From NCBI GenBank assembly GCA_042564205.1, contig JBHPLN010000001.1, positions 13,626-77,625 on the forward strand: a DNA stretch of 64,000 nucleotides. Direction: 5' to 3'. Both the position numbers and the translations under genes were made by a program. Positions 1-53,722 of this stretch are shown here, one piece after another; position 1 is the stretch's first letter, and each line of letters begins with the position of its first letter. Under the pieces are notes generated by a model. That model had not been told where the DNA came from, ran no database searches, and was given only the letters and a program-made list of their open reading frames with translations. The DNA is from Fidelibacterota bacterium (GTDB taxonomy: Bacteria; Fidelibacterota; Marinisomatia; Marinisomatales; JAHJCW01).

Positions 1-733
1 GTTTCCAGGTATCTTGCGTTTTATCTATTTTTTTTACACCTGAAATGCCGTGATCATTTTTCCAGTCTGCAATTAATGGTAGACCTAAAGTTTGAGGCCG
101 GTCCCGCATGAAAATCAGTATAATGATAGCGACTAAAATACAAAGCACTCCCGGCCCGATGAATCCGGCGCGCCAGCCCCATAAACTTACCAATGTGGCA
201 ATACCAACAAAGGTCAAGCCTTCACCGATTGAATGAGCGGTACTCCAAATACCATAATAGCGACCCCGTTCACCGATGCTAAACCACTGGGAGAGCGCAA
301 CAATTCCGGATGGTGCTCCAAAACCTTGAAACCAGCCATTTAATCCCCATAAAATCATCCATAATAATAATATCGTCGGAGAGAATCCCATAATCAAGTT
401 GATAAGAGCGGATACAAATACGCCCAGTGCAAAGAATTTCCTGATGTTGGCGTGATCCGCTAAAAAACCATTAGTGAGTTTACCAAATGCATAAGTGTAG
501 AAAATTGCCGATCCAATTACGCCCAAATCCTGGGCTGAGAAAATGCCGCTGTCAATCAGCGGTTTCTTTACTACCGAAAGCACCAGACGGCAAGTGTAAA
601 CGAAGCCATATCCGATCGTAATAACCAGCAGAACCTGTGTTCTGAGTCTTCGGTAAATATGATTTATTTCCTTTGTATCGGAAAGTGTTACTTGATCATC
701 ACCGGTCTTTAAGAATTGAAAAAGTTTTCTCAT
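1..733 (-). CDS. MFS transporter, organophosphate:Pi antiporter family (GlpT/UhpC-like); N-terminal part only, gene runs off the window
   Basis: Absent from the ORF track because it is open at the window edge. My translation from the ATG (complement of 731-733) reads MRKLFQFLKTGDD..RRLRTQVLLVITIGYGFVYTCR..GFLADHANIRKFF..LWGLNGWFQGFGAP.. with no stop down to position 1. These motifs parallel GlpT/UhpC TM1-TM5. Confidence 0.75.
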   Translation of the reverse strand, partial: MRKLFQFLKTGDDQVTLSDTKEINHIYRRLRTQVLLVITIGYGFVYTCRLVLSVVKKPLIDSGIFSAQDLGVIGSAIFYTYAFGKLTNGFLADHANIRKFFALGVFVSALINLIMGFSPTILLLWMILWGLNGWFQGFGAPSGIVALSQWFSIGERGRYYGIWSTAHSIGEGLTFVGIATLVSLWGWRAGFIGPGVLCILVAIIILIFMRDRPQTLGLPLIADWKNDHGISGVKKIDKTQDTWK

Positions 734-762
734 ATTATCTCCGCTAATTCCTTATAAGTTTA

Positions 763-1761
763 TCAATCATACTTTATCTTAATGGGTGTGTTCAATTCCA
801 TTGATTGTTTCGCTGCCAAGCCCACTTTCGTTGACATTAACCCATCGGCACCATCTACAAGTGGGTCACTATTGTTTTTTAACGCGTCGATAAATGCTCG
901 CATTTCATTCCAGAACGATGCCTTGTAGCGCTCTAAGAAAAAATAAAGCGGCTTTTCGGTTTGAACGCCCGCTGCGGTCATCAGCGTCGTTGTGGTTGCA
1001 ATATTATTTTCAGCAGTGATACTGCCCTTCGAACCAAAAGCTTCGATTCTTTGATCATAGCCATATACCGCCTGGCGACTATTATCGATAACGGCTAGTG
1101 CTCCGTTTTGCAATTTCAGCGTGGTCAAGGCGGTATCTACATCGCCGGCTTTCCCAATTGCATCATCAACTAGAACTACTCCTTTTGCAAACACCTCTTC
1201 GATTTCGCTCCCGGATAAAAATCGAACCATATCAAAATCATGGATAGCCATGTCAAGAAATAAGCCCCCTGAAGATTCGATATATTCCAGCGGTGGTGGT
1301 GCTGGGTCTCTCGCAATAATTTTTATAAGATGAAGGTCGCCAATAGCGCCCTCCAAGATTGATGATTTAATCTTGGCAAAATCCGGATCAAAACGCCTGT
1401 TAAAACCAATTTGTAGTTTTGTATTATTTTTATTAACTACATCCAAGACTTCGTTAATGACTTTAGGATCTAGCGCAATTGGCTTTTCACAGAAGACATG
1501 TTTGTGTGCCATTGCTGAATCTTTGATTTGCTTGGCGTGCAGTGTCGATGGTGAAAAAATAAGAACAGCATTGATTTGTTTGGATTGATAAATCTCAGAT
1601 GCACTGGTAACACTGAAAAGTCTCCTTTCCTCAACCCACGCTTTATCCAGTAGTGGATCGGTGACCATTGCAATATTCACATCTGGCATCTGTAATAAAT
1701 TATTTACATGCAGTTTTCCTATTCTACCCAGACCAATAACTCCTAACGTTAACTTGTTCAT
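763..1761 (-). CDS. Gfo/Idh/MocA family NAD(P)-dependent oxidoreductase (inositol 2-dehydrogenase-like)
   Basis: N-terminal Rossmann motif GVIGLGRIGKLH, EKP motif (FCEKPIAL) and GFNRRFD motif. Paralogous to the neighbouring ORF. Stop/start overlap with the upstream gene indicates an operon. Confidence 0.85.
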   Translation of the reverse strand: MNKLTLGVIGLGRIGKLHVNNLLQMPDVNIAMVTDPLLDKAWVEERRLFSVTSASEIYQSKQINAVLIFSPSTLHAKQIKDSAMAHKHVFCEKPIALDPKVINEVLDVVNKNNTKLQIGFNRRFDPDFAKIKSSILEGAIGDLHLIKIIARDPAPPPLEYIESSGGLFLDMAIHDFDMVRFLSGSEIEEVFAKGVVLVDDAIGKAGDVDTALTTLKLQNGALAVIDNSRQAVYGYDQRIEAFGSKGSITAENNIATTTTLMTAAGVQTEKPLYFFLERYKASFWNEMRAFIDALKNNSDPLVDGADGLMSTKVGLAAKQSMELNTPIKIKYD

Positions 1762-2765
1762 TGAATGATCCTCACTGGTAAGTTTGTAGCATACGATTCC
1801 TTTGCTGCCAGTGCTATCGATACAGCCTGCCTTGCATCATCACCCTTGACTGACGGCTCTGTTCCTTCATTCACGCACCGAAAAAAGTATTCCAATTCGC
1901 TCACATAGGCTTCGGCATAGCGCTCGATAAATGAATAAAACGGCATATCAAAATACACACCCGAGGATAAGCTCAGGGCGGTTTGCGTGGGCCGTGTGTT
2001 CTGTGCTCTGATGCTTCCCTTGGAACCAAAAACTTCAATCTGCTGATCATACCCATAATGCGTTTCTCTTGACACGTCAATTACTGCAATAGCGCCATTA
2101 CTTAATGTGAGCGTTAATACGGCCGTGTCAATATCGCCCAATGCCCCAATTTCTGGGTCAACGAGTACTGCTCCACTGGCAAAAACCTCTTCCACTTCGC
2201 TATCACAGAGATATCTTATTGTATCAAAATCATGAATGCAAAAATCCATGAATAATCCACCTGAATTGGGGATGAATTCAAGATCCGGGCGCTGTGGATC
2301 ACGGTTGGTAACTTTTATTATATGGGGCACACCAATCGATCCTTCTTCAATTGTTTTCTTAACTTTCTGAAAATCACGGTCAAACCGACGGTTAAAACCA
2401 ATCTGGAGAGCTACCTTGTTATCGGTTACCGATCTTATCGCTTTTTGAATATCTTTAGGTTCAAATGCGACTGGTTTTTCACAAAAAATAGCTTTCCCAG
2501 CTTGAGCGGCTAAGCAGATCATATCCACATGTGTGGATGAAGGTGTTGTGATTACAACGGCATCAATTTCTTGCGTGCTAAGTAATTCCTCAGGATTATC
2601 CAATACTTTTTGAATACCCAAATCCTGAGCCCAGCTATCATCAGGCTCAATATCGGCAACTGCCAGCAAATTGACCATTGGAATTCGTGTCACAATATTT
2701 TCGGCATGCATTTTCCCTATCCGCCCCGTACCGATCAACCCTACATTTATTTTTTTAACTGCCAT
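1758..2765 (-). CDS. Gfo/Idh/MocA family oxidoreductase (inositol 2-dehydrogenase-like)
   Basis: GLIGTGRIGKMH, FCEKPVAF and GFNRRFD motifs. I place the start at the internal ATG (MAVKKINVG) because AAGGGGG lies 6 nt upstream and it avoids overlap with the upstream gene. The track start is 2789. Confidence 0.85.
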   Translation of the reverse strand: MAVKKINVGLIGTGRIGKMHAENIVTRIPMVNLLAVADIEPDDSWAQDLGIQKVLDNPEELLSTQEIDAVVITTPSSTHVDMICLAAQAGKAIFCEKPVAFEPKDIQKAIRSVTDNKVALQIGFNRRFDRDFQKVKKTIEEGSIGVPHIIKVTNRDPQRPDLEFIPNSGGLFMDFCIHDFDTIRYLCDSEVEEVFASGAVLVDPEIGALGDIDTAVLTLTLSNGAIAVIDVSRETHYGYDQQIEVFGSKGSIRAQNTRPTQTALSLSSGVYFDMPFYSFIERYAEAYVSELEYFFRCVNEGTEPSVKGDDARQAVSIALAAKESYATNLPVRIIQ

Positions 2766-2775
2766 AGTAACCCCC

Positions 2776-3741
2776 TTATTTACTATCAATATTTTCCTGA
2801 GTGATCATTTCGATCTTTACCGGGATGTATCCCGCGAGGGCAGCACCCTCAATAACCTCATTTGCTTTGAGTATTGCCTCAAATCCCATTTCATAGGGAT
2901 GCTGCGCAATTGAACCATTCATTAATCCTGTTCGAATTGCTGCTCGCGCATCTGCAACAGCATCAAATCCAATGACTAGTATTTTATGCGCGGATTTTGA
3001 CACAGCTATTGCCTCAATCGCCCCTAGGGCCATCATATCATTGCAGGCAAACAAGGCTTGAACTTCAGGATTGGATTGCAGAATATTCTGAAATACGTTG
3101 AAACCCTGGTCACGCTCCCAGTTTGCTGTTTGTGAGGCGATAATTTCAATATCGGTATATTGATCAATGATTTCATGGAATCCTCGCAAACGCGCATCGC
3201 CGGTTTCATGTCCTGGGATTCCTTCCAGGATGGCGATTTTACCACGACCTTGCAATTGATCTGCAAAATATTTTCCAGCAATACGACCACCTTCAACGTT
3301 ATCTGAACCAATGAATGTTGCGATGGATGCCCCCAACTCTGCTAAGGTTGTTTCATCAATTCTGGTGTCAACTGCTAGCACTGGTATGTTGGCTCTATTC
3401 GCTTTTACAATGGCCGGGACAATTTCCCGTGAACCGCTGGGTGTCACGCAGATTGCGTCAACCTTTCTTTGAATTAAATTTTCAATGATCTGCATTTGTT
3501 TTTCAACATCGACTTCACGTTCAGCAGCTTGAACAATTAGTTTAATATTTAACTGTTCTGCGGCTGCTTCAGCTCCGCGCTGCATATCAATAAAAAAGGG
3601 ATTGTTAAGGGTTTTCATTACCAGTGCAATCGTCGCTGGATCGCTCTTTGACGGTGCGCCACGCTGGCAACTAAAGATTGTGCATAAACCTAGGGCAACT
3701 ATTACTATTTGAATAATTTTGAGATGTTTTGAATTACTCAT
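2776..3741 (-). CDS. Sugar ABC transporter periplasmic binding protein (ribose/RbsB-type PBP1), lipoprotein
   Basis: Signal peptide with lipobox (CTIFSC). Type-I periplasmic binding fold signatures (ALVMKTLNNPFF, GDARLRGF, FACNDMMALGA). Confidence 0.9.
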   Translation of the reverse strand: MSNSKHLKIIQIVIVALGLCTIFSCQRGAPSKSDPATIALVMKTLNNPFFIDMQRGAEAAAEQLNIKLIVQAAEREVDVEKQMQIIENLIQRKVDAICVTPSGSREIVPAIVKANRANIPVLAVDTRIDETTLAELGASIATFIGSDNVEGGRIAGKYFADQLQGRGKIAILEGIPGHETGDARLRGFHEIIDQYTDIEIIASQTANWERDQGFNVFQNILQSNPEVQALFACNDMMALGAIEAIAVSKSAHKILVIGFDAVADARAAIRTGLMNGSIAQHPYEMGFEAILKANEVIEGAALAGYIPVKIEMITQENIDSK

Positions 3742-4694
3742 TATCTGGATCCTCTGCGTTTAATGGTGGTATCAATCAAAACGGCAATGATTATCACAGC
3801 ACCAATAATGGTTTGTTGCAGAAAACTTGATACTCCTAAAAGATTTAGACCATTGCGCAGTACACCCATAATTAAAGCGCCAATTAAAGTCCCCACGATT
3901 CTTCCTTCGCCACCCATCAAACTAGTACCACCGATGACTGTTGCGGCAATGGCGTCCAATTCATACATCATCCCGGCAATCGGTTGGGCTGAATTCAGAC
4001 GCGCTGTCAGAATCACCGCTGCCAGACCACTTAGCATCCCACAAATGCCATATACGGCTGCTTTATACCGCGTAACGTTAATCCCTGAAAGTAGCGCTGC
4101 TTCTTCATTACCCCCGATTGCATATGTGTAGCAACCAAGCTTGGTGTGCGTTAATATGAAATGTGCGATTAGGTACACCAGAATCATTAAAATGACTGGA
4201 ACAGGTATGAACATAATTTCGCCCGTGGCAATTGAGCGGAAATTTAGATCAAAACCAGAGATGGGTCGCCCCTGTGTATACATCAAAGCCGCGCCGCGCG
4301 CGACACTCATCATACCCAAGGTGGCAATAAAAGGAGGCAATTTACCATAAGCGATTAAAGACCCATTGATGAGTCCGCATATAAGACCTACCCCCAATCC
4401 CAATATGATCGCTAAACTCATTGGTAAATCGGCCTCCAGCGCACTGGCCAGCACTACTCCTGAAAAAGCCACAATTGAACCAACCGACAAATCAATTCCA
4501 GCGGTAATTATCACAAAGGTAAGTCCAACTGCAATGATTGCGTTTATGGATGTTTGTTGAGCTATGTTAACCAGGTTTGGAACGGTTAAAAAATGCGGGG
4601 ATAGAACCCACATCACCAAGATCAGACCAATCAATCCAAACAACGTACCTAATTGACGGCCATAGCGGTGCATTATATCCTTAAGCCGCACCAT
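3741..4694 (-). CDS. Sugar ABC transporter permease (RbsC/AraH family)
   Basis: Polytopic membrane protein with GGIDLSVGS and IGG.SL.GG motifs typical of BPD_transp_2 sugar permeases. Translationally coupled to both neighbours. Confidence 0.9.
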   Translation of the reverse strand: MVRLKDIMHRYGRQLGTLFGLIGLILVMWVLSPHFLTVPNLVNIAQQTSINAIIAVGLTFVIITAGIDLSVGSIVAFSGVVLASALEADLPMSLAIILGLGVGLICGLINGSLIAYGKLPPFIATLGMMSVARGAALMYTQGRPISGFDLNFRSIATGEIMFIPVPVILMILVYLIAHFILTHTKLGCYTYAIGGNEEAALLSGINVTRYKAAVYGICGMLSGLAAVILTARLNSAQPIAGMMYELDAIAATVIGGTSLMGGEGRIVGTLIGALIMGVLRNGLNLLGVSSFLQQTIIGAVIIIAVLIDTTIKRRGSR

Positions 4695-6177
4695 ATTCTC
4701 CTAATGCAGTCTGCATTATTTCTTCCTGTGAGGTTTCATTTGGTCTGAATTCACCAACAATTGCACCTTGATGCATTACTAAAATTCGATTGCACATACC
4801 CAACAGTTCCGGGAGCTCTGAAGATATCATTAAAATTGCTGCACCCTCTTCCAGCAGCCTGTTCATTAGGTGATAAATTTCCACTTTGGAACCGATATCG
4901 ATTCCCCTTGTTGGTTCATCGAATATTAAGATATCGGCATCCGTGCATAAACATTTACTGATTACAATTTTTTGTTGATTGCCACCGCTAAGATATTGAA
5001 CGCTCTGATCTAAGCCGGTGGTCTTGATATGTAAATCTTTGATATAACGTTTTGCCGCTTGGCGTTCTTTGGCCCTATTTATAACACCCCATTTAGAAAG
5101 ATCAGATATACTTGCCAGGCAAATATTGTTTTTAACGGAAAGCTGCATAACCAGACCCTGGGTTTTACGATCTTCGGTTATAAAGCCAAGCCCCTGGTCA
5201 ATAGCTGTTTGCGGGGAATCTATGGTTGTATCTTTGCCATGAATCCTAATTTCACCTTGCTCGGGCTTTGCAATTCCATATATTGCATGCGCTAGTTTTG
5301 TTCTACCAGACCCTAATAGTCCCGCCACTCCTAAGATTTCTCCACGGTGCAATGAAAAATTTATATCATTCAGTTCTACTCCCAGCTGCAGGCCAGTGAT
5401 TTTAAGTACTTCTTCTTCAACCTTATTCGCGCGGGGCGGATAAATGTCAATTATATCGCGGGCCACCATCAATTTTATAAGCTTGTCGCTCGTAACAGTT
5501 CTAAGATTGTGGACACCAACATTTTGACCATCTCTGAGCACTGTTACCCAATCACCTATCTCGAATATTTCTTCTAGTCGATGAGAAATATATATAATCG
5601 ATACGCCTGAAGACTTTAACCTATCAATAACCTTAAAGAGCTGGGTGATTTCCGACTGCGTCAAGGCAGAGGTTGGTTCATCCATAATTAGGATCTCAGC
5701 ATTGAGTATAAGTGCCTTCGCCACCTCTATCATCTGTTGCTGAGCCACGCCCAAATTAGCGATATGTGTATCGCCATCAAGAACAATGCCCAATTGTTCT
5801 AAAACTTTTTGGGAAGTCTGCCGCATATTTACCCGGTCAATTGTCTTTAAGGGCGTTAGTTTTTCATGCCCTAATAGAATATTTTCATCGATGCTCATTT
5901 TTGGAATGAGGTTGAATTCTTGGTAAATTATACTCACTCCGTGGGCGATTGCATCTTGGGGATTATTGATTTCAACTGGAGCGCCATTAATATATATGTC
6001 ACCGCTATCCTTTTTATAAGCACCGCTAATTATTTTCACCAGGGTTGATTTTCCTGCTCCATTTTCACCAAGTAATGCATGAACGGTGCCCTTTTCTACT
6101 TTAAGATTGACAGCTTCAAGGGCTGGTACGCCATAGAAATTTTTTGATATATTTGTTAGTTCAATTGCACAATTCAT
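4681..6177 (-). CDS. Sugar ABC transporter ATP-binding protein, duplicated ABC domains (RbsA-like)
   Basis: Walker A GENGAGKST, signature LSGGNQQK and a second degenerate NBD. 498 aa is typical of CUT2 ATPases. Confidence 0.9.
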   Translation of the reverse strand: MNCAIELTNISKNFYGVPALEAVNLKVEKGTVHALLGENGAGKSTLVKIISGAYKKDSGDIYINGAPVEINNPQDAIAHGVSIIYQEFNLIPKMSIDENILLGHEKLTPLKTIDRVNMRQTSQKVLEQLGIVLDGDTHIANLGVAQQQMIEVAKALILNAEILIMDEPTSALTQSEITQLFKVIDRLKSSGVSIIYISHRLEEIFEIGDWVTVLRDGQNVGVHNLRTVTSDKLIKLMVARDIIDIYPPRANKVEEEVLKITGLQLGVELNDINFSLHRGEILGVAGLLGSGRTKLAHAIYGIAKPEQGEIRIHGKDTTIDSPQTAIDQGLGFITEDRKTQGLVMQLSVKNNICLASISDLSKWGVINRAKERQAAKRYIKDLHIKTTGLDQSVQYLSGGNQQKIVISKCLCTDADILIFDEPTRGIDIGSKVEIYHLMNRLLEEGAAILMISSELPELLGMCNRILVMHQGAIVGEFRPNETSQEEIMQTALGEYGAA

Positions 6178-6272
6178 ATCTAACGATCCCAGGAATTACG
6201 GCTATTGGACACGAAAGAAAATTATCTGATTCACTCAGCTAATACTCAAATTAAAAGCCACTTTTTCTGCGA

Positions 6273-7073
6273 TTACATTAGTGGTTTAATATTATCAATA
6301 ACTCTTTTGGCAGCTGTATCTGGGTCTGGATATGGTAATATTTCAGCAGATACGGTTCCTTGATACCTAATCTGTTTCAAGGTATTAAAGATTTTTTCAA
6401 AATCTAAATGCCCTGCCCCAGGAAACTGACGATTTGAATCGGCAATATGGACATAAAATAATTTCCGACCGGCCGCTTTAATACTATTATAGATGGATAC
6501 TTCTTCGATATTCATATGAAAAGTATCAAGCAGAAGTCCGACATTGTCCCTATCTAGTGCACGGATAAAATCTAAACCCTCTTGGGCCGTATTAATCATT
6601 TGGGCTTCATAACGATTACATGGTTCGATAGCTAATTTGACAGCTTTATCTACATCGGCGCATTCTTGCATAGCCTCAAGGAACCAGCGATCAGCTATTT
6701 CGCCAGCAACATCCTGATCAGGATTTCCCCTAATTAACCCAATAATAACAATGGCTCCAAATTGCTTTGCTAAATGAATCTGACTTTTGATTCGATTAAC
6801 TGCCTTTTCCCTAATGTTCTGATCCTTATTGGTAAATGATAACCCGTCTTCGCCAAATGCTTGGCCGGTCCCGATTGCAGTAACGCTTAGGCCATTATCT
6901 GAAAGCCAATCTTCCAAGCTTGGAAGATCTAGCAGTGCGGGATCCCGCACTGCTAGTTCAACACCAGTATACCCGAATGATTTTAATTTTCTCAAATTGG
7001 GCTTCAAGCTGCCTTGGTAAGCCAATGCAGAGAATCCTGTTGCTTGAGTTGATACTACAATGCTAAGCTGCAT
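6273..7073 (-). CDS. Sugar phosphate isomerase/epimerase, xylose-isomerase-like TIM barrel (IolO/IolE-like candidate)
   Basis: AP_endonuc_2-type pattern (GVELA.., IEPCNRYE, LLDTFHMNIEE, HIADSNR). Function inferred from context only. Confidence 0.75.
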   Translation of the reverse strand: MQLSIVVSTQATGFSALAYQGSLKPNLRKLKSFGYTGVELAVRDPALLDLPSLEDWLSDNGLSVTAIGTGQAFGEDGLSFTNKDQNIREKAVNRIKSQIHLAKQFGAIVIIGLIRGNPDQDVAGEIADRWFLEAMQECADVDKAVKLAIEPCNRYEAQMINTAQEGLDFIRALDRDNVGLLLDTFHMNIEEVSIYNSIKAAGRKLFYVHIADSNRQFPGAGHLDFEKIFNTLKQIRYQGTVSAEILPYPDPDTAAKRVIDNIKPLM

Positions 7074-7077
7074 TTAA

Positions 7078-8172
7078 TTACAATCCCATTTTTCGAATTG
7101 AATAAATTGGGCGCCAGCCTTCCGTGAATGGTTCTTTCAAATATGGCTTCATTTCCTCTTCTGTACGCATTGTGGTTTTTTCTATGGGCGGAACCGTGCC
7201 CGCTGGAAATGCTTCCAAGATCTCATCGTGCACTAAGGTTAAATAACTCAATATTGCCGCAATTGTACGTTTGGCTTTCTGAGCCTTGGCAATATTCGGT
7301 CGGCCAACAACACCTTCTGGGATTGATCCTAATTCAGTTGGGAAATGCCCTTGTCCTTCGGACCATTTGCTTGGCCTGGCAAATGGTTCCACAGCTTTAT
7401 CAAAGTGCCCTTCGGGCAAATAACCTTTTACTTCTGTCTCTTCGGCTAACGCCATTTCAACATACTCTGGTTCCAATAAAAGCATTACCGAAGTTTCCGC
7501 TTCATCGGCATGGACAAAATTATCATCCCAATCTCCGCCCCGTTCCTTCGTTCTGAAAAATTCGCGTACAGCTCGATGCCAGTCAATCACCCTAAAAATA
7601 CCTGGTAGATTCCAAGTTTTTTGCAGTTCCTGGATGGCTGCTTCAAGCAACCATTGATGACCATGATTATTTATCATTATCATTTTCCTAAATCCATCGT
7701 TCCATAAACCAACCATAACATCAATTAGTACTTTTTTTAATACTTCATCTTCTAAATGTATGGTTCCCGGCATTCCAATATGATGGTGGGGGTGTCCACC
7801 ATAATTGAGTGGAGTAAAAACAAGATTAACTGGAGCACCTTTTTTTGCTGTGAACCTTCTTACCCCTTCTAAAATCTGGGTCACCATAAATGTGTCTAGT
7901 GCTGTAACAGTGTGCCTACCGTGTAACTCAGTGCACCCAATAGGAATGAATACAATATCATTCTTTTTCCTGTTATCAACAACTTTCTGTCTAATTGTAT
8001 TTTGGACGTAAGAACCCGGTTTTCCAAGTTCCGAGGATGAGGGGATTCCGTAATCTTTAAGAATTTTTTCTATTTCAGAGTCGGAGGCTTCCCAAATCTG
8101 TTTTTTAAGTCTTCCTACTGATGTGTTTTCAAACCGCAGATCCTCACGGTCTGTTGCTAGCCAGTCGTTCAT
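7078..8172 (-). CDS. Creatininase-family metal-dependent hydrolase (IolN-like candidate)
   Basis: Creatininase family motifs IPIGCTELHGRH...D, NNHGHQ and HADEAETSVML. Confidence 0.75.
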   Translation of the reverse strand: MNDWLATDREDLRFENTSVGRLKKQIWEASDSEIEKILKDYGIPSSSELGKPGSYVQNTIRQKVVDNRKKNDIVFIPIGCTELHGRHTVTALDTFMVTQILEGVRRFTAKKGAPVNLVFTPLNYGGHPHHHIGMPGTIHLEDEVLKKVLIDVMVGLWNDGFRKMIMINNHGHQWLLEAAIQELQKTWNLPGIFRVIDWHRAVREFFRTKERGGDWDDNFVHADEAETSVMLLLEPEYVEMALAEETEVKGYLPEGHFDKAVEPFARPSKWSEGQGHFPTELGSIPEGVVGRPNIAKAQKAKRTIAAILSYLTLVHDEILEAFPAGTVPPIEKTTMRTEEEMKPYLKEPFTEGWRPIYSIRKMGL

Positions 8173-8188
8173 TTAAAATCTCCTTTAT

Positions 8189-9376
8189 CTATTCGAAATT
8201 CTTAATAGTGATTTTTACTTCGTTTCTATCTGTCTGTAACATTTTTAGATTATCCCCCACTTCATCCAAAGAGATTCGTTTTGTAATCATAGGTGATACA
8301 TCCATTCCAGTTGCCATGCATTGGATAACATTTGGAAATGTTCCATGTCCGGAGTGTCCTTGAGATCCAACAACACTGGCTCTTCGAACCTGAAGAACTT
8401 CACCGTTTAATGGAATCTTGTCGTCCGCCCGCGCTACGACTACAACACTTGTATTTAGTGCTTTGCCTTCCCAAATAATTTTCTCAACATCTGACCAAAC
8501 AACACTGGGTAATCCGGTTGCCTCAAGAATAATTCCCGCTCCCACGCCATTTGTAATATCTAAAACAGTATCGCCCACATCTACAGCCATTGGATCTATT
8601 GCATGTGTGGCACCCATATCTAAAGCCATTTGTCTTCTAGATTCAGATGGTTCCGAAAGGATTACTGCTGCTGCCCCTTGTCGCTTCAATATAGCACAGG
8701 CTGCTGCTCCAATAGGACCACCGCCAAGAATGACAACATTTTCACCTGGTCTAATTCCACCACCTCGTTCGATAACTGCATTATACGCTACCGAGGTGGG
8801 TTCAACAAGACTCCCCAGTTCGTACATTTTATCTGCTCCGAAAAGTTCACCAATACCGTCAATGCTCCAACAGTAGCGTGCATCAACCTTTATATATTTA
8901 GCATATGCACCGTCAGTTGAAAAACCCAATTCTTCTAATTTTTCACAATGATTTGGAAAACCATCTGAGCAAGGTTTACACGTAGCACACCAAATCATTT
9001 CCTCGGCACAAACCGATTCGCCTTTTTTAAAAGCTTTTCCTGTGGCTTTATTGAAGGCATCTTCTCCCGCTTCTACGATAACACCGGAAAACTCGTGACC
9101 CAATGTTGCTGGAAATGCTGTTAATCCTGGATAAAAGATGTACCCATCATCATCGGCTTGACGCATATGAACATCACTCCCGCAAATTCCACAGGATTTG
9201 ACTTCGACTAATACTTCCGTTGGACCAGGCTTTGGTATATCTTTTTCTGAAATTTCAATTTGTGGATTTCGCCAAACTTTACTTCCGAGATAGGTTAATT
9301 TGCCATCGATGTCTTTGGAACCTAATTTGAATCCTGGGCGTGGATCCCAATCTGCACTAAGAACTACTGCTCTCAT
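8189..9376 (-). CDS. Zinc-dependent alcohol/polyol dehydrogenase (MDR family; IolM-like candidate)
   Basis: GICGSDVHM and GHEFSGVIVEAG zinc-ADH motifs. GGGPIGAAA Rossmann motif. Confidence 0.85.
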   Translation of the reverse strand: MRAVVLSADWDPRPGFKLGSKDIDGKLTYLGSKVWRNPQIEISEKDIPKPGPTEVLVEVKSCGICGSDVHMRQADDDGYIFYPGLTAFPATLGHEFSGVIVEAGEDAFNKATGKAFKKGESVCAEEMIWCATCKPCSDGFPNHCEKLEELGFSTDGAYAKYIKVDARYCWSIDGIGELFGADKMYELGSLVEPTSVAYNAVIERGGGIRPGENVVILGGGPIGAAACAILKRQGAAAVILSEPSESRRQMALDMGATHAIDPMAVDVGDTVLDITNGVGAGIILEATGLPSVVWSDVEKIIWEGKALNTSVVVVARADDKIPLNGEVLQVRRASVVGSQGHSGHGTFPNVIQCMATGMDVSPMITKRISLDEVGDNLKMLQTDRNEVKITIKNFE

Positions 9377-9407
9377 AAGAGTTTCCCCCTTATTTATTAT
9401 TATTTAG

Positions 9408-10514: not shown

Positions 10515-10529
10515 AACTTTATTTGTCTA

Positions 10530-10543
10530 ATTGTATATACAAT
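10530..10543. promoter_or_regulatory. Candidate operator 1: perfect 14-bp palindrome ATTGTATATACAAT
   Basis: Perfect palindrome 16 bp upstream of the regulator start codon. Same 12-bp core as 10745-10756. Resembles the AraR box half-sites TTGTAC/GTACAA and the GntR GT-N-AC rule. Confidence 0.5.
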
Positions 10544-10744
10544 ATAAAAGCGATTTATTGATTCAAGCAAGTGGATTTCTGCTTATAATTATATACAAAT
10601 CCAATAATATTATACCATTGATGTTCAGTTAAAATAATTTGTGTTAAGTATATATAATTAATTATATTATATTTATAAGTATCATTCCTTTATGTATTTT
10701 CAGAGAATATTTGTCTTGATATTTAAATTTTGTTGTTTTACAAT

Positions 10745-10756
10745 TTGTATATACAA
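10745..10756. promoter_or_regulatory. Candidate operator 2: 12-bp palindrome TTGTATATACAA
   Basis: Identical 12-bp core to operator 1, 37 bp upstream of the TonB-dependent receptor ATG. Confidence 0.5.
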
Positions 10757-10792
10757 TAATACTATTATGACCTAACTTAAAAGGGGGTCCCC

Positions 10793-13558: not shown

Positions 13559-13595
13559 GCATTAAGAGTAAGAATAGTTAAAGATAACAAAAAAA

Positions 13596-13630
13596 ACTGG
13601 CGTAATTTTTTTAGTGCGCCAGTTTTTTTT
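13596..13630 (+). terminator. Rho-independent terminator (A-tract/hairpin/T-tract, potentially bidirectional)
   Basis: ACTGGCG (13596-13602) pairs with CGCCAGT (13617-13623) and is followed by T8. Confidence 0.7.
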
Positions 13631-13677
13631 AAAGATAAAATTAATAGACGTAGAACAAGTTAATAAAAGAGAGTAAA

Positions 13678-14811
13678 ATGAAAATATTTAACAAAGCACA
13701 ATATATTACCGCCATCCTATTAATTACGATTTTTTCCATTTTCACAATAGGATGCGAAAAAAAAGTAAATACTTATGTTATTAAACCTGCAGTCGTTACC
13801 GAAATAATACCACATGATACTGATGATCCGGCAATATGGATCAATCCCGAAGATCCATCAAAAAGTTTAATTATTGGTACCGACAAAGATGATGACGGAG
13901 CACTATATGTCTATGATCTGGATGGGAATATAATTGAGGAAAAGACTGTAAAAAATTTAAAACAACCAAACAATGTTGATATTGAATACGGGATAATTCT
14001 GAATGGCGTAGCCACTGACATTGCGGTAACAACTGAAAGATTAGCAAATAAAATCCGTGTTTACAGTTTACCAGATATGAAAGAAATTGATAATGGGGGG
14101 ATTGAAGTTTTTGAAGGTGAGGATTTAAATGCTCCAATGGGAATTTCACTATATAATCGACCATCTGATGGAAATATATATGCTATAGTAGGCAGGAAAA
14201 AAGGGCCATCAACTGGGTACTTGTGGCAGTATTTGCTTGAAGATGATGGCAACGGTAATGTAAAAGGTACAAAAGTCAGATCATTTGGCAATTACAGCGG
14301 TTTTAAAGAAATTGAATCGATCGCAGTAGATGATGATTTAGGGTATGTGTATTATTCAGATGAGCAGATTGGTGTAAGGAAGTATCATGCAGATCCTGAT
14401 GCACCAGAAGCAGACAAAGAATTGGCAATAATTCCTACGCAAGATTATCTAAAAGATAATGAAGGAATTTCAATTTACTGTAACGATGACGGAACCGGTT
14501 ATATTTTAGTTTCTGATCAAAACGCAAGTAGATTTAGAATTTATTCAAGAGAAGGTACTCCTGAAGAGTTAGATGAAGATCCTGAAGATTACGTACCTGC
14601 TCGTCCACATTTACATAAATTATTAAAAATTGTTAATGTTTCAACGCTACGAAGTGATGGTTCAGAAGTTACCAAGGTAGCTCTTGGTAATAAATTTCCA
14701 ACCGGTTTATTCGTAGCAATGTCAGATGATAAGACTTTCCAATTGTATCATTGGTCAGATATAGCAGGTGATGATTTGGAAGTGATGACAACTAATCTTT
14801 ATAATCTATAA
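13678..14811 (+). CDS. Beta-propeller phytase (3-phytase, BPP family), lipoprotein
   Basis: Lipobox FTIGC. Collinear matches to Bacillus PhyC as I recall it: DDPAIW, NNVDI, DIAVTT.R, ESIAVDD..GYVYYSDE, DNEGISIY...G.GYILVSDQ..S.F.IY. Confidence 0.85.
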   Translation: MKIFNKAQYITAILLITIFSIFTIGCEKKVNTYVIKPAVVTEIIPHDTDDPAIWINPEDPSKSLIIGTDKDDDGALYVYDLDGNIIEEKTVKNLKQPNNVDIEYGIILNGVATDIAVTTERLANKIRVYSLPDMKEIDNGGIEVFEGEDLNAPMGISLYNRPSDGNIYAIVGRKKGPSTGYLWQYLLEDDGNGNVKGTKVRSFGNYSGFKEIESIAVDDDLGYVYYSDEQIGVRKYHADPDAPEADKELAIIPTQDYLKDNEGISIYCNDDGTGYILVSDQNASRFRIYSREGTPEELDEDPEDYVPARPHLHKLLKIVNVSTLRSDGSEVTKVALGNKFPTGLFVAMSDDKTFQLYHWSDIAGDDLEVMTTNLYNL

Positions 14812-14837
14812 TATTGTAATGTAAATTGTTAATAATT

Positions 14838-14884
14838 GTGAGGGGGTAGCTATTCATCATTGATGCTTCCCCCTCACTCTTTCT
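14838..14884 (+). terminator. Rho-independent terminator
   Basis: GTGAGGGGG (14838-14846) pairs with CCCCCTCAC (14869-14877), followed by a T-rich tail. Confidence 0.6.
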
Positions 14885-14917
14885 AGACAAACATCAAAAC
14901 ATAATCAATTTATTCCT

Positions 14918-15892
14918 ATGTATATGAATCTGCTAATAATCATTATTTTAGGATTCAATCTCCTTGTAGCTCAAGATTCATTTACTTTCAATTACTGTAA
15001 TTCGCAACCCGAACAACATCCGCGTAGTCAATCAATGATTTTTTTCAAAAATGAAATTGAAAGACGTACAAACGACAGGATACATGTTGAAAACTATTTT
15101 TCCGCAATATTAGGAACCGAGATGGAAGTCCTTGATATGGTTGCCACAGGTGCATTGCAAGGTACTCGTAGTGGTGGTTTCATTCATGCAAACAAAAAAT
15201 ATTATCTTTTTATGTTACCCTTTCTGGTTGATAATTGGGATCAAGCGATTCAACTGGTTAACAGCGAATTCACAAATGCCATTAATAAAGAAGCACAATC
15301 CAACGGATTTCATATCCCTGCCTGTGGAATTTCTCAAGGGTTTCGAGCTCATACAAATAATGTACGTCCAATTCAATCTCCAGAAGACTTAAAAGGTCTA
15401 AAAATGCGTGTACCAGCGCAAGAAGTATACGTTGTGAATTCACAAATTCTGGGCGTTAATCCACAGCAATTACCATATAGTGAAGTCTATATGGCACTGA
15501 AAACAGGAGTAGTTGATGGACAGGATAATGCAGTGTCAAATATCTGGGATTTTAAAATATATGAAGTCCAGAAATATCTCACCATATCCTATTATGCTAC
15601 TGGTCCCGATCCATTCATGGTGAATCTTGATTGGTATAACAGCCTGCCCATTGAACTTCAAAAGACATTTGATGAAGTGGCGCTGGAAACAATGAAATAT
15701 AGTGATCAACTGAATCGTGAGCAGGAAGGATTATACATAACGCAGCTTGAAGAAAAGCTCGAAACAAATTATGTAACCCCGGGCGATCTGAAAAAATTTC
15801 GCACAGCAACACTACCTGTTTATCAATATTTTATAGATAAGGGTTATTTTTCCTGGGATGATATCAGATCTGCTCGTGAAAGCATCAAATAA
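14918..15892 (+). CDS. TRAP transporter substrate-binding protein (DctP family)
   Basis: DctP-family pattern including the carboxylate-binding Arg context (QGFRAHTN) and LKTGVVDGQDN. Followed by DctQ and DctM genes. Confidence 0.85.
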   Translation: MYMNLLIIIILGFNLLVAQDSFTFNYCNSQPEQHPRSQSMIFFKNEIERRTNDRIHVENYFSAILGTEMEVLDMVATGALQGTRSGGFIHANKKYYLFMLPFLVDNWDQAIQLVNSEFTNAINKEAQSNGFHIPACGISQGFRAHTNNVRPIQSPEDLKGLKMRVPAQEVYVVNSQILGVNPQQLPYSEVYMALKTGVVDGQDNAVSNIWDFKIYEVQKYLTISYYATGPDPFMVNLDWYNSLPIELQKTFDEVALETMKYSDQLNREQEGLYITQLEEKLETNYVTPGDLKKFRTATLPVYQYFIDKGYFSWDDIRSARESIK

Positions 15893-15906
15893 GCGCGAGT
15901 CTTTAA

Positions 15907-16398
15907 TTGAAAAAAATGAAATGGTTAAAAAAAATTGAACTGGTTTTCACTCGGCTTTTAGAATACATCCTTCGCCTTCTTTTTTTATGTTTTTTAACTA
16001 TAGTTATTGTTTTGGTATTTCTACGGTATGGATTTAATACAACAATTGTTGGGGGAAATGAGTTAATTGTAATACTGTTTATCTATACTTCGGCTATCGG
16101 AGCGGCCGTTATTATTGGTAGAAAGGAACATATCGCGATTACCTATTTTGTTCAAAAAATGTCCCCACAAATAAATCGATTAGTTAATATATTAAATTTT
16201 TTATTGGTTGCAATTCTAAATGGTGCCTTGATCAAATACAGTTTTCCGTGGATTAGTAAGACCGGCAGCTATTCAACAGCCACATTAGGGATACCGCAGT
16301 TGTACTTGCAAATAATAGTACCAATAAGTTGTAGTATAGCAATTTTTTATTGCCTAGTTCAAATATTTCTGTTGTTAAACCCCGCGAAAACACATTAG
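15907..16398 (+). CDS. TRAP transporter small permease (DctQ family)
   Basis: 163-aa four-TM protein between DctP and DctM. The start could be TTG 15907 or ATG 15916. Confidence 0.75.
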   Translation: MKKMKWLKKIELVFTRLLEYILRLLFLCFLTIVIVLVFLRYGFNTTIVGGNELIVILFIYTSAIGAAVIIGRKEHIAITYFVQKMSPQINRLVNILNFLLVAILNGALIKYSFPWISKTGSYSTATLGIPQLYLQIIVPISCSIAIFYCLVQIFLLLNPAKTH

Positions 16399-16405
16399 TT
16401 AATCC

Positions 16406-17692
16406 ATGGTAATCTTGTTAATCAGCTTAATTATTTTTTTAGTACTGGGTATCCCGGTTGCCTACGCTTTAGGCTTATCAGCATTAAGCTACTTCTTCAT
16501 TTATTATCCTGATCTATTAATAATATTACCGCAGAGATTTTTTTCCGGTTTGAATATGTATGCTTTAATAGCCTTACCACTATTCATACTTATGGGATTG
16601 CTCATGAACAAAACTAAGATCACTTCACGTCTCATCGATTTTAGTTTACTAATTGTTGGCAGATTTCGTGGAGGCCTGGGCCTAGTAAATGTTGTGGCTA
16701 GTATGATTTTTGGCGGAATATCCGGGTCTTCTGCTTCTGACACTGCTTCAATCGGAGCGGTGCTCATACCGGAAATGGAGAAACGTGGTTACCCTAAACA
16801 ATTCGCAGCCGGTATCACGGTTGCATCTTCAACAATGGGCATGATCATCCCCCCTAGTATACCTATGGTCCTTTATGCGATTATCGCCGAGGAATCGGTT
16901 GGAAAACTCTTTTTAGGCGGGCTGATACCAGGCGTAATGATCGGAGTATTTCAATTAGCGATTGTAATACTGATTTCGATTAAAAATAAATACCCCAAAG
17001 AAGAAGTTAGTTTATCATATAAAAACATTTTTTATCAAATTAGACGCTCTAGCCTCGCCCTTATTATGCCAATTTTCGTGGTTGGATCGGTTGTTTTTGG
17101 TATTGCTACTGCAACAGAATCAGCAGCAATTGGTGTATTTTATGCCTTTTGTGTTGGCTTGATATTTCTTGGGATCAGTGGATTTAAGAAATATTTCACA
17201 AAAACTATCCCCGATTGTCTTAATTCCGCAATCCTGACCAGTGCAAAAATCATGATCGTGATAGCCTTTTCAAAATTATACATTTGGATCCTTGCGCTTG
17301 AACGAGTACCGCAGACCATAGCTACATTTATGATTACAATGAATTTTTCTCCTGTCATCATGTTACTCTTTATAGTAGTAGTAATTCTGATAGCAGGTAC
17401 CTTTATTGATGTGAGTCCGGCTATTCTATTATTAACTCCGGTGTTCTTGCCAGCCTGCGTTGCTGTCGGAATATCACCAATCCAGTTTGGTGCAATATTA
17501 ATAACCGGCTTAGCCGTGGGAGCTGTGACGCCACCGGTTGGAACTTGTATTAATGTTGGATCGGCTATTTCCGGCCTTGGAATTGGAACAATATTCAGAG
17601 GAGCAGCACCATTCTTAGCAGCAAATATTATAACCCTGATATTAATCAGCATATTTCCACAACTGACATTATGGATACCATCCCTATTTTAG
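16406..17692 (+). CDS. TRAP transporter large permease (DctM family)
   Basis: 428-aa polytopic protein with DctM-like motifs (GIPVAYALG, ALPLFILMG, GGISGSSASD, PPSIPMV). Confidence 0.9.
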   Translation: MVILLISLIIFLVLGIPVAYALGLSALSYFFIYYPDLLIILPQRFFSGLNMYALIALPLFILMGLLMNKTKITSRLIDFSLLIVGRFRGGLGLVNVVASMIFGGISGSSASDTASIGAVLIPEMEKRGYPKQFAAGITVASSTMGMIIPPSIPMVLYAIIAEESVGKLFLGGLIPGVMIGVFQLAIVILISIKNKYPKEEVSLSYKNIFYQIRRSSLALIMPIFVVGSVVFGIATATESAAIGVFYAFCVGLIFLGISGFKKYFTKTIPDCLNSAILTSAKIMIVIAFSKLYIWILALERVPQTIATFMITMNFSPVIMLLFIVVVILIAGTFIDVSPAILLLTPVFLPACVAVGISPIQFGAILITGLAVGAVTPPVGTCINVGSAISGLGIGTIFRGAAPFLAANIITLILISIFPQLTLWIPSLF

Positions 17693-17740
17693 TAAAAACA
17701 ATTTTAATCAAAAAAAACAAATGATGAAGGAAAAAAGAAA

Positions 17741-18634
17741 ATGAAAAATATTGGTATTATAGGTCTTGGTGACATGGGCATTGGTATGGCTAGCAATATA
17801 GTAAAAAGTGGCTTCAACCTTTATGGATTTGATCTTCGTGAAGAGCGTTTAAATCTATTTAAACAGTTAGGCGGAAAATCAGCAGCAAGCTATCAAAAAA
17901 TTGCTGAAAACGCAGATATTGTTTTTATAATGGTTCTTAATGGGGCGCAAGTTAAAGAGATTGTGCTTGGGGAATCGGGTTTAATAAAGTATCTAAAACC
18001 AGGTTCAACAATCATTATAACAGCAACAATTAATCCTTCAGAAGTAAAAGATCTTATAACTCCGTTACTTGAAAAAAATATCAACCTGGTTGACTCGCCC
18101 GTTAGTGGTGGAAAAGCGGGGGCTGACAGTGGAACACTTACCCTAATGACAGCCGCGAAAAAAGAGGTTCTCGAGGAATGTAAAAATGTGCTGGAGGCCA
18201 TAGGACAAAATATTTTTCATGTAGGTGAAGAAATTGGCATAGGACAAACTGTAAAAGCAGCATTACAGGCATTTATTGGTGCAAGCTTTACTGCGATTTT
18301 CGAATCCCTAGTATTAGGCGTAGCAGCAGGGGTAAAAGCTGAAACTCTTTATGAAGTTTTTAGTGCTAGTGGCGTAAGCAGCCCCTTATTTAAGAATTCC
18401 GCAAAACTTATTATGGATCGAAAATTCAAAGGTACAGGAAGCCATATCGGAACAATGTATAAAGATCTTGGAATTTCAATGAATATGGCAAAAGAAAATG
18501 GAGTTGCGATGTTCACTGCTGGTGCAGCACATGAATTATTCCGGGCGGGTATGTCACTTTTCCCAGAAGAGGATAATTGGGCTATTGTAAAGTTGTTAGA
18601 ACAGATAGCAGGAATAAAAGTAAAAATTCAATAA
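17741..18634 (+). CDS. NAD-dependent beta-hydroxyacid dehydrogenase (3-hydroxyisobutyrate/tartronate-semialdehyde reductase family)
   Basis: IGIIGLGDMGIGMASN Rossmann motif, DSPVSGG and KD motifs of the HIBADH family. Confidence 0.85.
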   Translation: MKNIGIIGLGDMGIGMASNIVKSGFNLYGFDLREERLNLFKQLGGKSAASYQKIAENADIVFIMVLNGAQVKEIVLGESGLIKYLKPGSTIIITATINPSEVKDLITPLLEKNINLVDSPVSGGKAGADSGTLTLMTAAKKEVLEECKNVLEAIGQNIFHVGEEIGIGQTVKAALQAFIGASFTAIFESLVLGVAAGVKAETLYEVFSASGVSSPLFKNSAKLIMDRKFKGTGSHIGTMYKDLGISMNMAKENGVAMFTAGAAHELFRAGMSLFPEEDNWAIVKLLEQIAGIKVKIQ

Positions 18635-18650
18635 CCGATAAGGAGATATC

Positions 18651-19514
18651 ATGAAACTTGGTGTAATAACTGATGGAATAAGCAGAGATCTTGAGCATGC
18701 TTTAAGTGTTATGAATGAAACGAAATTAAGATACGCGGATTTACAATTTGTGTGGGATAAAGAAATTGGAGATCAGACGCCTGAAGAGATTCAAAAAATT
18801 AAAGATCTTATTAATAAGTACAATATGGTGGTTCCATGTATCACAAGGCACAATTTTGTTGGAATGCTGGTGATGGATACAGAACCCGAAGATGAAATCT
18901 ATCAAAAGCATTTAGAAGGGTTAAAACGTTGTATAAAAATTGCCAAAGTGTTAGATAGCGATATGGTCCGTATCATGAGTTTCAGAAAAGAAATGATAAT
19001 CTTCGGTCATAATGGAGCAGAAAAATGGGTTGCAAGTACGGGCTCATGGGAAAAATTATTAAAACTCATGGAAGCGCCAATTCAATTAGCTGAAGATGCG
19101 GGTATAACATTAGCCGTTGAGACTGGGAATAATGCAATGATAACCTCGGGTTGGCTAGGAAGAAAACTTATTAATGATTTGGGGACTAAACACCTAAAAC
19201 TCATTTGGGATATACCCAATACTCTTTATTGCACTGAAATTCCTTACCCAGATGCATATGAAGAGATTAAGGAGCATTTAGGCCATATTCATATAAAGGA
19301 CTGTAAATCTAATATTGCACGGGCCACAGTTCAATTTTGTCCCCTAGGACAAGGTGACATGGCGCCATATCTTGAGGATCTTTCTCATGCGTTAAAAAGA
19401 GATAAATATCAAGGAGTTATATCCTTGGAAAGCGTTTACAGGCCTACCAATGGCACGTTTGAGGATGGATATCGTGAGTGCTTACCTGTTTTCAAAAACC
19501 TATTTGGGGATTAG
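18651..19514 (+). CDS. Sugar phosphate isomerase/epimerase (xylose-isomerase-like TIM barrel)
   Basis: AP_endonuc_2-like pattern (LAVETGNN, IWDIPN, HIHIKD). Last gene of the plus-strand set. Confidence 0.8.
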   Translation: MKLGVITDGISRDLEHALSVMNETKLRYADLQFVWDKEIGDQTPEEIQKIKDLINKYNMVVPCITRHNFVGMLVMDTEPEDEIYQKHLEGLKRCIKIAKVLDSDMVRIMSFRKEMIIFGHNGAEKWVASTGSWEKLLKLMEAPIQLAEDAGITLAVETGNNAMITSGWLGRKLINDLGTKHLKLIWDIPNTLYCTEIPYPDAYEEIKEHLGHIHIKDCKSNIARATVQFCPLGQGDMAPYLEDLSHALKRDKYQGVISLESVYRPTNGTFEDGYRECLPVFKNLFGD

Positions 19515-19703: not shown

Positions 19704-19955
19704 ATGCCAATGTATATGGATATTCATAATAATGTAAAAGGATTAACAAAGGAAGCGCTTGAAGAAATACATCAGAAAGACTTGGAAGTACAAGGTAAAC
19801 ATGGTGTCAAATATGTGAATTATTGGTACAATGAGGATGAAGGAACGGTTTTTTGCCTTTCTGATGCTCCAAATAAGGAAGCAGCAGCTGCAGTTCATCG
19901 CGAGGCACACGGAGCTGAGGCCGATAAAATTATTGAGGTAACTCAGGGAGCATAG
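19704..19955 (+). CDS. DUF4242-like small protein (SCO4226-type metal-binding fold candidate), cytoplasmic form
   Basis: 83 aa starting MPMYMDIH, with ..YW...EG.VFCL.DAP..EAA..VH.EAHG. RBS GGAG. Paralog of 20221-20583. Confidence 0.6.
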   Translation: MPMYMDIHNNVKGLTKEALEEIHQKDLEVQGKHGVKYVNYWYNEDEGTVFCLSDAPNKEAAAAVHREAHGAEADKIIEVTQGA

Positions 19956-42684: not shown

Positions 42685-42759
42685 CAAAAAGTCTAAATAT
42701 GATACCCAAAAATACAAATCCCCGACGACAAATACTATTTACCGATGAGGATTATTCTG

Positions 42760-42833
42760 TGGGCGATACCCGGCTTGAACGGGTGGCCTCTGCCGTGTGA
42801 AGACAGCGCTCTGACCAGCTGAGCTAATCGCCC
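42760..42833 (-). tRNA. tRNA-Val (anticodon CAC)
   Basis: Hand-folded cloverleaf. Acceptor GGGCGAT/ATCGCCC, D stem GCTC/GAGC, anticodon stem CTGTC/GGCAG with loop TTCACAC, T stem ACCCG/CGGGT with loop TTCAAGC, discriminator A. 74 nt, CCA not encoded. Confidence 0.9.
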
Positions 42834-49397: not shown

Positions 49398-49400
49398 GTT

Positions 49401-50570: not shown

Positions 50571-50621
50571 TCAGTTTTAGAACATTTATGTTAAGCATTG
50601 AACTTCAACAACCATATCTAA

Positions 50622-50700: not shown

Positions 50701-50724
50701 TTAGGAACATTACATACAACACGA

Positions 50725-53721: not shown

Positions 53722-53722
53722 G

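Follow-up and report, generated by a model that had tools for sequence, protein, structure and literature searches.

A putative inositol phosphate utilisation locus in a Fidelibacterota genome joins a TonB-dependent receptor-phytase pair to Thermotoga-type inositol genes

Phytate and other inositol phosphates constitute a large organic phosphorus pool, yet are usually discussed only as a source of phosphorus. Gene pairs encoding a TonB-dependent receptor (TBDR) and a beta-propeller phytase (BPP) were reportedly described in aquatic and soil bacteria by Lim et al. in 2007 (ISME J). Such a pair is also documented in Citromicrobium (PMC3400609). As laid out in PMC12632266 and PMC5931981 (citing Rodionova 2013), Thermotoga maritima oxidises inositol twice and hydrolyses the ring to 5-keto-L-gluconate, which is then converted to D-tagaturonate. 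Here, we analysed positions 1-19514 of a 64-kb stretch of DNA from a Marinimicrobia/SAR406-type host (Fidelibacterota), hereafter the window, to which all coordinates refer. In this locus, a receptor-phytase pair lies divergent from an operon of T. maritima-type inositol genes. As judged from its sequence, it probably serves the TBDR-based utilisation of phytate or lower inositol phosphates, whose ring would enter the IolG-IolM-IolN-IolO route under the control of an AraR-type repressor.

Like the described TBDR-phytase pairs, the locus places a receptor with CarboxypepD_reg and plug domains beside a PF02333 phytase predicted at the outer membrane, and it invites the same hypothesis of a receptor handling phytate or its products; passage of inositol hexakisphosphate (InsP6) through the TBDR has already been proposed (PMC3400609, PMC8115612). 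It departs from these pairs in being joined to an inositol catabolic operon, a candidate operator of the sugar-type regulator AraR, two to three inner-membrane importers and an organophosphate antiporter. The pair of Flavobacterium johnsoniae, in contrast to the candidate sugar-type operator here, belongs to the phosphate-starvation response (PMC8115612). With TM0411-TM0416 of T. maritima, the locus shares IolG, IolM, IolN, IolO and an ABC importer, and a TM0415 homologue is found in related loci. The regulator, however, is of AraR type here and a ROK-type IolR there, the ABC system here belongs to the CUT2 family, and the T. maritima set is extended by a TBDR, a phytase, an organophosphate antiporter and a TRAP transporter, whereas the window contains neither a TM0415 homologue nor UxaE.

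Two further systems invite comparison. The carbohydrate utilisation (CUT) loci of Xanthomonas and Caulobacter (PMC1790865) likewise combine a TBDR of the TIGR01782 family with an inner-membrane transporter, a degradative enzyme and a regulator, all of which are present within 1-19514; here, however, the host is a member of the FCB group, the degradative enzyme is a phosphatase, and the presumed substrate is a phosphorylated cyclitol instead of a plant carbohydrate. Bacillus-type iol operons (IolABCDEGJ) also begin with the oxidation of myo-inositol by IolG and are under divergent repressor control. Yet, this canonical pathway was rejected for the present locus, as family scans revealed no IolB, C, D, E or J, the sole IolE match being a sub-threshold hit on IolO (E 2e-9), far under the 290-bit cut-off. 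Instead, the ring would be opened by IolM plus IolN, with a hexuronate as the product rather than dihydroxyacetone phosphate, acetyl-CoA and CO2. Both the receptor-phytase pair and the T. maritima pathway are known, but their union was not found described: in full-text searches of an open-access library lacking most subscription journals, no paper joined a TBDR-phytase pair to IolM, IolN and IolO (weak evidence of novelty), and no description of a common operator or of a spread across FCB-group and Acidobacteriota lineages was found in the same searches.

Gene content and family assignments

An open reading frame listing combined with family scans matched the gene map of the initial annotation throughout and revealed, in addition, a TRAP transporter, a dehydrogenase, a TIM-barrel gene and hairpins flanking the phytase gene, all undescribed until then. 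Ten densely packed genes, with intergenic gaps of -14 to +95 nt, occupy the minus strand. The features of the locus and the families to which they were assigned are as follows.

1..733, minus strand: organophosphate:phosphate antiporter family transporter of the major facilitator superfamily; N-terminal 244 aa only, the gene extending past the window edge
763..1761, minus strand: IolG paralogue 2, inositol 2-dehydrogenase (TIGR04380, 416 bits, cut-off 355)
1758..2789, minus strand: IolG paralogue 1, inositol 2-dehydrogenase (TIGR04380, 423 bits, cut-off 355)
2776..3741, minus strand: CUT2-family ABC sugar-binding lipoprotein, presumed inositol binder (Peripla_BP_4, 216 bits)
3741..4694, minus strand: ABC permease (BPD_transp_2, 164 bits)
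4681..6177, minus strand: ABC ATPase with two cassettes (ABC_tran twice, 195 bits)
6273..7073, minus strand: IolO, 5-keto-L-gluconate epimerase, product D-tagaturonate (NF041099, 337 bits, cut-off 300)
7078..8172, minus strand: IolN, 3-dehydro-scyllo-inosose hydrolase, ring-opening, creatininase fold (NF041098, 311 bits, cut-off 245; Pfam Creatininase)
8189..9376, minus strand: IolM, scyllo-inosose 3-dehydrogenase, a zinc alcohol dehydrogenase (NF041097, 501 bits, cut-off 450)
9408..10514, minus strand: AraR-type regulator, first gene of the operon (Pfam GntR plus Peripla_BP_3, _1 and _4)
10515..10792, no strand: divergent control region of 278 nt, holding both operator copies
10531..10542, no strand: candidate operator 1, TTGTATATACAA, 17 nt upstream of the regulator start codon
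10745..10756, no strand: candidate operator 2, TTGTATATACAA, beginning 48 nt before the TBDR start codon
10793..13558, plus strand: TBDR (Pfam CarbopepD_reg_2, i.e. an N-terminal CarboxypepD_reg domain, Plug and OMP_b-brl_3)
13589..13630, plus strand: terminator-like hairpin between the TBDR and phytase genes (A8, GC stem, U8; dG -19.4 kcal/mol, z -5.3)
13678..14811, plus strand: lipoprotein beta-propeller phytase (PF02333, 158 bits, cut-off 21)
14838..14877, plus strand: GC-rich hairpin 3′ of the phytase gene (dG -26.6 kcal/mol, z -5.4; weak U-tract, UCUUUCU)
14918..17692, plus strand: TRAP transporter (DctP 14918-15892, DctQ 15907-16398, DctM 16406-17692; Pfam)
17741..18634, plus strand: beta-hydroxyacid dehydrogenase (NAD_binding_2 and NAD_binding_11)
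18651..19514, plus strand: divergent xylose-isomerase-like TIM-barrel protein (AP_endonuc_2, 93 bits)

Comparisons were made with 80 phytase-anchored loci (numbered up to L080) and with an independent IolG-anchored metagenome sample (L081 onward). As proposed in the initial annotation, a lipoprotein BPP is encoded directly behind a TBDR (PF02333, lipobox and gene positions), and the two genes diverge from an AraR-type regulator (gene positions and regulator domains) that heads a ten-gene operon concerned with inositol, the two IolG paralogues, IolM, IolN and IolO all exceeding their NCBIfam cut-offs.

The same annotation had named homology searches as a possible refutation of its assignment of 13678-14811 to the BPP family, and these searches confirmed the membership. 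Residues 47-352 align to positions 48-334 of the 375 in the PF02333 profile, and residues 47-351 match the Bacillus BPP structures 3amr, 1cvm, 1qlg and 1poo with E-values of 1e-32 to 7e-32. Ten of 11 active-site residues are kept (D55, D56, K76, R122, K179, E211, E227, D258, E260 and D314), and these ten ligand residues are invariant or nearly so across 72 homologues; the underlying list, in 1cvm numbering, comprises what we take from the TS-Phy literature to be the calcium and phosphate ligands. The N-terminus consists of a signal peptide with the lipobox TIGC, and most homologues likewise possess a signal peptide ending in a cysteine. In five related loci (L038, L039, L044, L048 and L055), tandem two-propeller phytases of ~620-680 aa replace the single-domain enzyme.

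The receptor scored 517 bits against TIGR01782 (TonB-Xanth-Caul; cut-off 310), with plug and barrel domains found. An interpretation as a SusC/SusD-type locus was rejected, given that TIGR04056 (SusC) reached merely 74 bits (cut-off 368) and that the next gene encodes the phytase, not a SusD protein. The initially proposed pairing of TBDR and BPP phytase is corroborated by the related loci, as a receptor gene adjoins the phytase homologue in 68 of the 80 phytase-anchored ones. Together with the paired palindromes described below, this frequency indicates that the arrangement is more than chance.

Identities to close relatives are mosaic. The window receptor shares 85% identity with its L008 counterpart and only 42% with the L001 one; for the phytase, the values are 92% (L001) and 77% (L008); the regulator reaches only 53-54% with L001 and L008, and IolM and IolN 81-89%. 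This pattern suggests replacement of receptor and regulator among close relatives. A second TBDR of the same CarboxypepD_reg plus plug architecture is encoded at 54642-57473, with no obvious partner enzyme.

By homology, the inositol genes are those of the T. maritima-type route. IolO matches T. maritima TM0416 (2zvr) over its full length with 236 bits (E 4.5e-69), and all four Thermotoga-type enzymes (IolG twice, IolM, IolN and IolO) exceed the NCBIfam equivalog cut-offs. The initial description of the route as complete-looking did not hold, since IolG-IolM-IolN-IolO ends at D-tagaturonate, and is thus not a complete canonical pathway, and no UxaE is encoded in the 64 kb.

As regards transport, the partial antiporter belongs to Pfam MFS_1 and scored 182, 160 and 159 bits against the NCBIfam models for UhpC, GlpT and PgtP, respectively, all sub-cut-off values for a half-length protein. 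Its homologues are found in the same type of locus, namely in ten phytase-anchored and 12 IolG-anchored cases. The ABC binding protein starts with an IFSC lipobox, i.e. a lipoprotein signal instead of a plain signal peptide. Within 1-14811, the GC content at third codon positions steps from 0.35-0.43 in the antiporter, IolG and ABC genes to 0.22-0.29 in the regulator, receptor and phytase genes; the left part of the operon may be of different origin.

Control region and recurrence in related loci

The regulator carries a GntR helix-turn-helix domain at residues 16-74 and LacI-type sugar-binding domains (Peripla_BP_3, _1 and _4) at residues 85-359; judged by these predicted domains, its architecture is that of AraR. 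Orthologues occupy the same divergent position in L001 and L008. An exact 12-nt palindrome, TTGTATATACAA, has two copies in the 64 kb, both within the divergent region and near either end of it, and did not turn up when the window was shuffled 100 times. A sigma-70-like match (TTGATA-17-TACAAT) ends at position 10744, immediately 5′ of operator 2. The half-sites, TTGT...ACAA, agree with what we take to be known operators of the GntR family. AraR operators are palindromes of the form TnGT...ACnA from which the repressor is released by sugar; the candidate site here is present twice, and its position is kept in relatives. L001 and L008 show the same paired layout, with the sites reading TTGTCTATACAA and ATGTATAGACAA. 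Five loci (L009, L011, L015, L019 and L020) have the motif 92-97 nt 5′ of the phytase gene, past a terminator hairpin behind the receptor gene, and in three (L007, L014 and L019) it lies 65-94 nt 5′ of an operon for a zinc alcohol dehydrogenase, the antiporter and a PfkB kinase. In total, ten related loci have variants of TTGTATATACAA ahead of operons for the receptor, the phytase or inositol use.

The initial annotation had placed the whole locus under one divergent control region. The paired candidate operators and the motif in ten related loci render common control of the divergent units by one repressor plausible; in the window, no operator precedes the phytase gene itself. The hairpin at 13589-13630, between receptor and phytase genes, was matched in stability by none of 200 shuffles, and comparable hairpins lie 3′ of the TBDR gene in L009, L011, L015, L019 and L020. 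An Rfam search of the window revealed no RNA family, and the sugar-regulator palindrome is the only recognisable control element at the locus.

The closest phytase loci (86-92% identity) stem from Candidatus Neomarinimicrobiota (at NCBI now under Fidelibacterota), and the best relatives in a metagenome scan with IolG2 were at most 60% identical. Exact matches to the phytase, IolG2 and IolO sequences were sought, and none turned up. Phytase, receptor and iol genes are found linked in ~19 loci, in varied gene orders, in several phyla and from two independent anchors. Starting from the phytase, iol genes, ABC importer or antiporter lie within 10 kb in L001, L008, L016, L018, L022, L028, L029, L030 and L073, and an IolM-like zinc alcohol dehydrogenase (cluster 4) plus antiporter in L007, L010, L014 and L019; these linked loci are recorded under Fidelibacterota, Ignavibacteria/Melioribacteraceae, KSB1, Holophagae, Calditrichaceae and several unclassified metagenome-assembled genomes. 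Starting from IolG, six loci (L081, L086, L087, L089, L091 and L125) encode phytase and receptor next to IolG, in most cases together with the antiporter, and five of the six also encode IolM, IolN or IolO. In the most complete of them, L091, a 20-kb span includes all parts between phytase and UxaE (460 bits), and genes for a short-chain dehydrogenase and a HAD hydrolase come next. UxaE, a tagaturonate epimerase, is encoded directly 3′ of the phytase in L007, L011, L018, L019 and L020, and after IolO in L091.

Also encoded in related loci is a PfkB-type homologue (E 2e-48 to 1vk4) of TM0415, the pyrophosphate-dependent inositol kinase of the Thermotoga operon (PMC5931981). The kinase gene follows the antiporter gene in eight of ten antiporter-bearing phytase-anchored loci and in nearly all IolG-anchored ones, and in >15 related loci the two are direct neighbours. 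Secreted or lipoprotein metallophosphoesterases are present in related loci as well. A block of antiporter, TM0415-like PfkB and secreted metallophosphoesterase genes lies 5′ of the receptor-phytase pair in L007, L010, L012, L014, L016, L018, L019, L022, L029 and L081-L091. Its recurrence hints at an action of the TM0415 family on imported inositol phosphates.

Proposed scheme and its alternatives

The genes present and their families, the conserved candidate operators and the recurrent synteny together suggest the following scheme. At the outer membrane, a lipid-anchored calcium-dependent phytase and the TBDR would cooperate such that an inositol phosphate crosses the membrane and is stripped of its phosphates, in either order. 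Transport would be inward also at the inner membrane, with free inositol presumably reaching the cytoplasm via the CUT2 ABC importer and lower inositol phosphates via the organophosphate:phosphate antiporter. Extrapolating from the T. maritima enzymes, the two IolG proteins would convert inositol to scyllo-inosose and IolM would generate the diketone, upon which IolN would open the ring to yield 5-keto-L-gluconate and IolO would form D-tagaturonate. More tenuously, the latter may be channelled into hexuronate catabolism encoded elsewhere in the genome or in part by the TRAP-linked dehydrogenase and TIM-barrel genes. The AraR-type repressor would bind TTGTATATACAA before its own operon and before the TBDR gene, and control would respond to the sugar moiety and not to a lack of phosphate.

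This organisation suggests that inositol phosphates are used as a carbon food, beyond being a phosphorus source, and the link to carbon use drawn in the initial annotation gains support from the recurrence of the linkage in other phyla, seen from both the phytase and the IolG anchor. If the scheme is correct, abundant uncultured lineages (Marinimicrobia, Ignavibacteria, KSB1, Calditrichota and Holophagae) would draw carbon and energy as well from inositol phosphates. The locus would also plausibly supply the Thermotoga pathway and the TM0415 kinase with a natural substrate, and it is a concrete case for whether TBDRs move highly charged inositol phosphates.

Several observations weigh against the proposed scheme. 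First, Tyr159 of the Bacillus enzymes is replaced by methionine in the window phytase and in all 72 members of its clade; its presence in every member speaks for a trait of the lineage and not for decay. Second, Bacillus BPPs are reported to stop at inositol trisphosphate (InsP3), and no enzyme was seen in the 64-kb window that would take InsP3 down to inositol. Third, a clear post-tagaturonate enzyme is missing from the window, in which position 1 truncates the operon, and further genes may lie beyond it; tblastn of the 64 kb with queries from related loci found no UxaE, TM0415-like PfkB, short-chain dehydrogenase or HAD hydrolase. Fourth, among solved structures the ABC binding protein comes closest to binders of ribose and allose (2ioy, E 1e-64), hence its assignment to inositol follows from genomic context; the Caulobacter binding protein 4irx, which we take to be the myo-inositol binder IbpA although the PDB entry is not so labelled, matched with only E 7e-28. 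Fifth, a relaxed version of the operator motif yielded 24 matches over the 1.3 Mb of loci compared to ~19 in shuffles, i.e. no enrichment, and the weight of the motif therefore lies in the positions of its matches. Sixth, a strong hairpin parts the TBDR gene from the phytase gene with no operator 5′ of the latter in the window, and co-regulation of the phytase would here depend on read-through.

One alternative, largely compatible with the proposed scheme but, in our estimation, fairly unlikely, is a natural substrate other than InsP6. The propeller would then be a general inositol-phosphate phosphatase acting on lower inositol phosphates, on the phosphoinositol head group of eukaryotic or archaeal lipids, or on an osmolyte of the di-myo-inositol-phosphate type. 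The clade-wide methionine in place of Bacillus Tyr159 would fit such a shift, as would the conserved organophosphate antiporter with a TM0415-like inositol/pyrophosphate kinase alongside in related loci; moreover, T. maritima, the source of the pathway, fails to grow on inositol (PMC3750489). Yet, the near-invariance of ten of the 11 calcium and phosphate ligands of the Bacillus phytases argues for InsP6, and a TBDR would be less suited to a small monophosphate than to a large, scarce and highly charged substrate.

A related proposal, in our view unlikely, is that lower inositol phosphates are imported by the antiporter and that the TM0415-type kinase runs in reverse (InsP + Pi -> inositol + PPi). 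If so, phosphoester energy would be conserved as pyrophosphate before ring oxidation, and the Thermotoga-type pathway and TM0415 would gain their missing physiological substrate. That such a kinase gene might sit just past the window edge, where the operon is cut, is a reasonable guess, no more. A second idea, in the manner of BtuG on BtuB, is that the propeller lipoprotein might act as a catalytic lid on its TBDR.

Phosphorus scavenging as the only role, with the inositol operon placed beside the pair by an accident of gene order or for minor ring salvage, seems quite unlikely to us. A further observation that counts against the proposed scheme belongs here, in that expression of the homologous F. 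johnsoniae pair, Fjoh_1367/1368, rises on phosphate depletion (PMC8115612). Bacteroidota proper (L031-L080) possess the receptor-phytase pair without iol genes, and the hairpin between the TBDR and phytase genes would permit separate control. Against this reading, the linkage recurs in ~19 loci of several phyla with differing gene orders and from two independent anchors, one operator motif precedes phytase, TBDR and iol operons, the regulator is of the sugar-binding type, and UxaE directly follows the phytase in five loci.

TRAP module and remainder of the window

Downstream of the phytase gene, the TRAP proteins score above the cut-offs of TIGR00787 and TIGR00786. The binding protein DctP retains the arginine of an LKMRVP motif. 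This arginine is typical of carboxylate binders. The suggested ligand is an acid sugar, perhaps one converging on tagaturonate. A TRAP module lies 3′ of the phytase in L001-L003, and TRAP plus dehydrogenase genes at 51-62% identity are found also in L089 and L125; this retention behind the phytase across loci argues that the module is part of the system. In L091, an ABC importer occupies the TRAP position. The dehydrogenase is best matched in NCBIfam by L-threonate dehydrogenase (227 bits, under the cut-off of 350) and among solved structures by 3cky. For the TRAP binding protein and the dehydrogenase, neither solved relatives nor NCBIfam yielded a substrate, and the TIM-barrel protein (18651-19514) had no sequence match in the PDB, its single-sequence structure model being unusable (pLDDT 42). 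That the plus strand is mainly an acid-sugar uptake module (TBDR, TRAP, dehydrogenase and TIM-barrel protein), with the phytase as an accessory and D-tagaturonate or hexuronate metabolism as the common ground with the iol operon, would fit the DctP arginine, the persistence of TRAP and dehydrogenase genes beside the phytase in L089 and L125, and the carbohydrate-type TonB-Xanth-Caul subfamily of the receptor, but is very improbable given that most TBDR-phytase loci lack any TRAP genes, that L091 has an ABC importer in their place, and that comparisons with NCBIfam and the PDB assign no substrate to the dehydrogenase or the TIM-barrel protein.

Beyond the locus, the window encodes sensor kinases, housekeeping genes and an SOS mutagenesis cassette, all unrelated to it. 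Immediately downstream, the segment 19560-20583 harbours a pair of small SCO4226-like paralogues (19704-19955 and 20221-20583); before each of them lies a similar ~38-nt stretch, AAGGTC(C/T)TTTATATT..TTATTGTTTTTA, together with TTAGCAGGC, an arrangement that looks like a duplicated unit of promoter and gene. A signalling run follows at 22040-42257, comprising a response regulator, PAS/GAF histidine kinases (930, 1120 and 381 aa) and a PAS-SpoIIE phosphatase, and a tRNA-Val gene is located at 42759-42833. The SOS mutagenesis cassette (48792-54433) consists of genes for LexA (48792-49397), a Y-family polymerase (49401-50570), a DnaE2-like Pol III alpha subunit (50725-53721) and an SRAP peptidase (53723-54433), and has a GC content of 0.45-0.48, compared to ~0.36 in the adjoining DNA.

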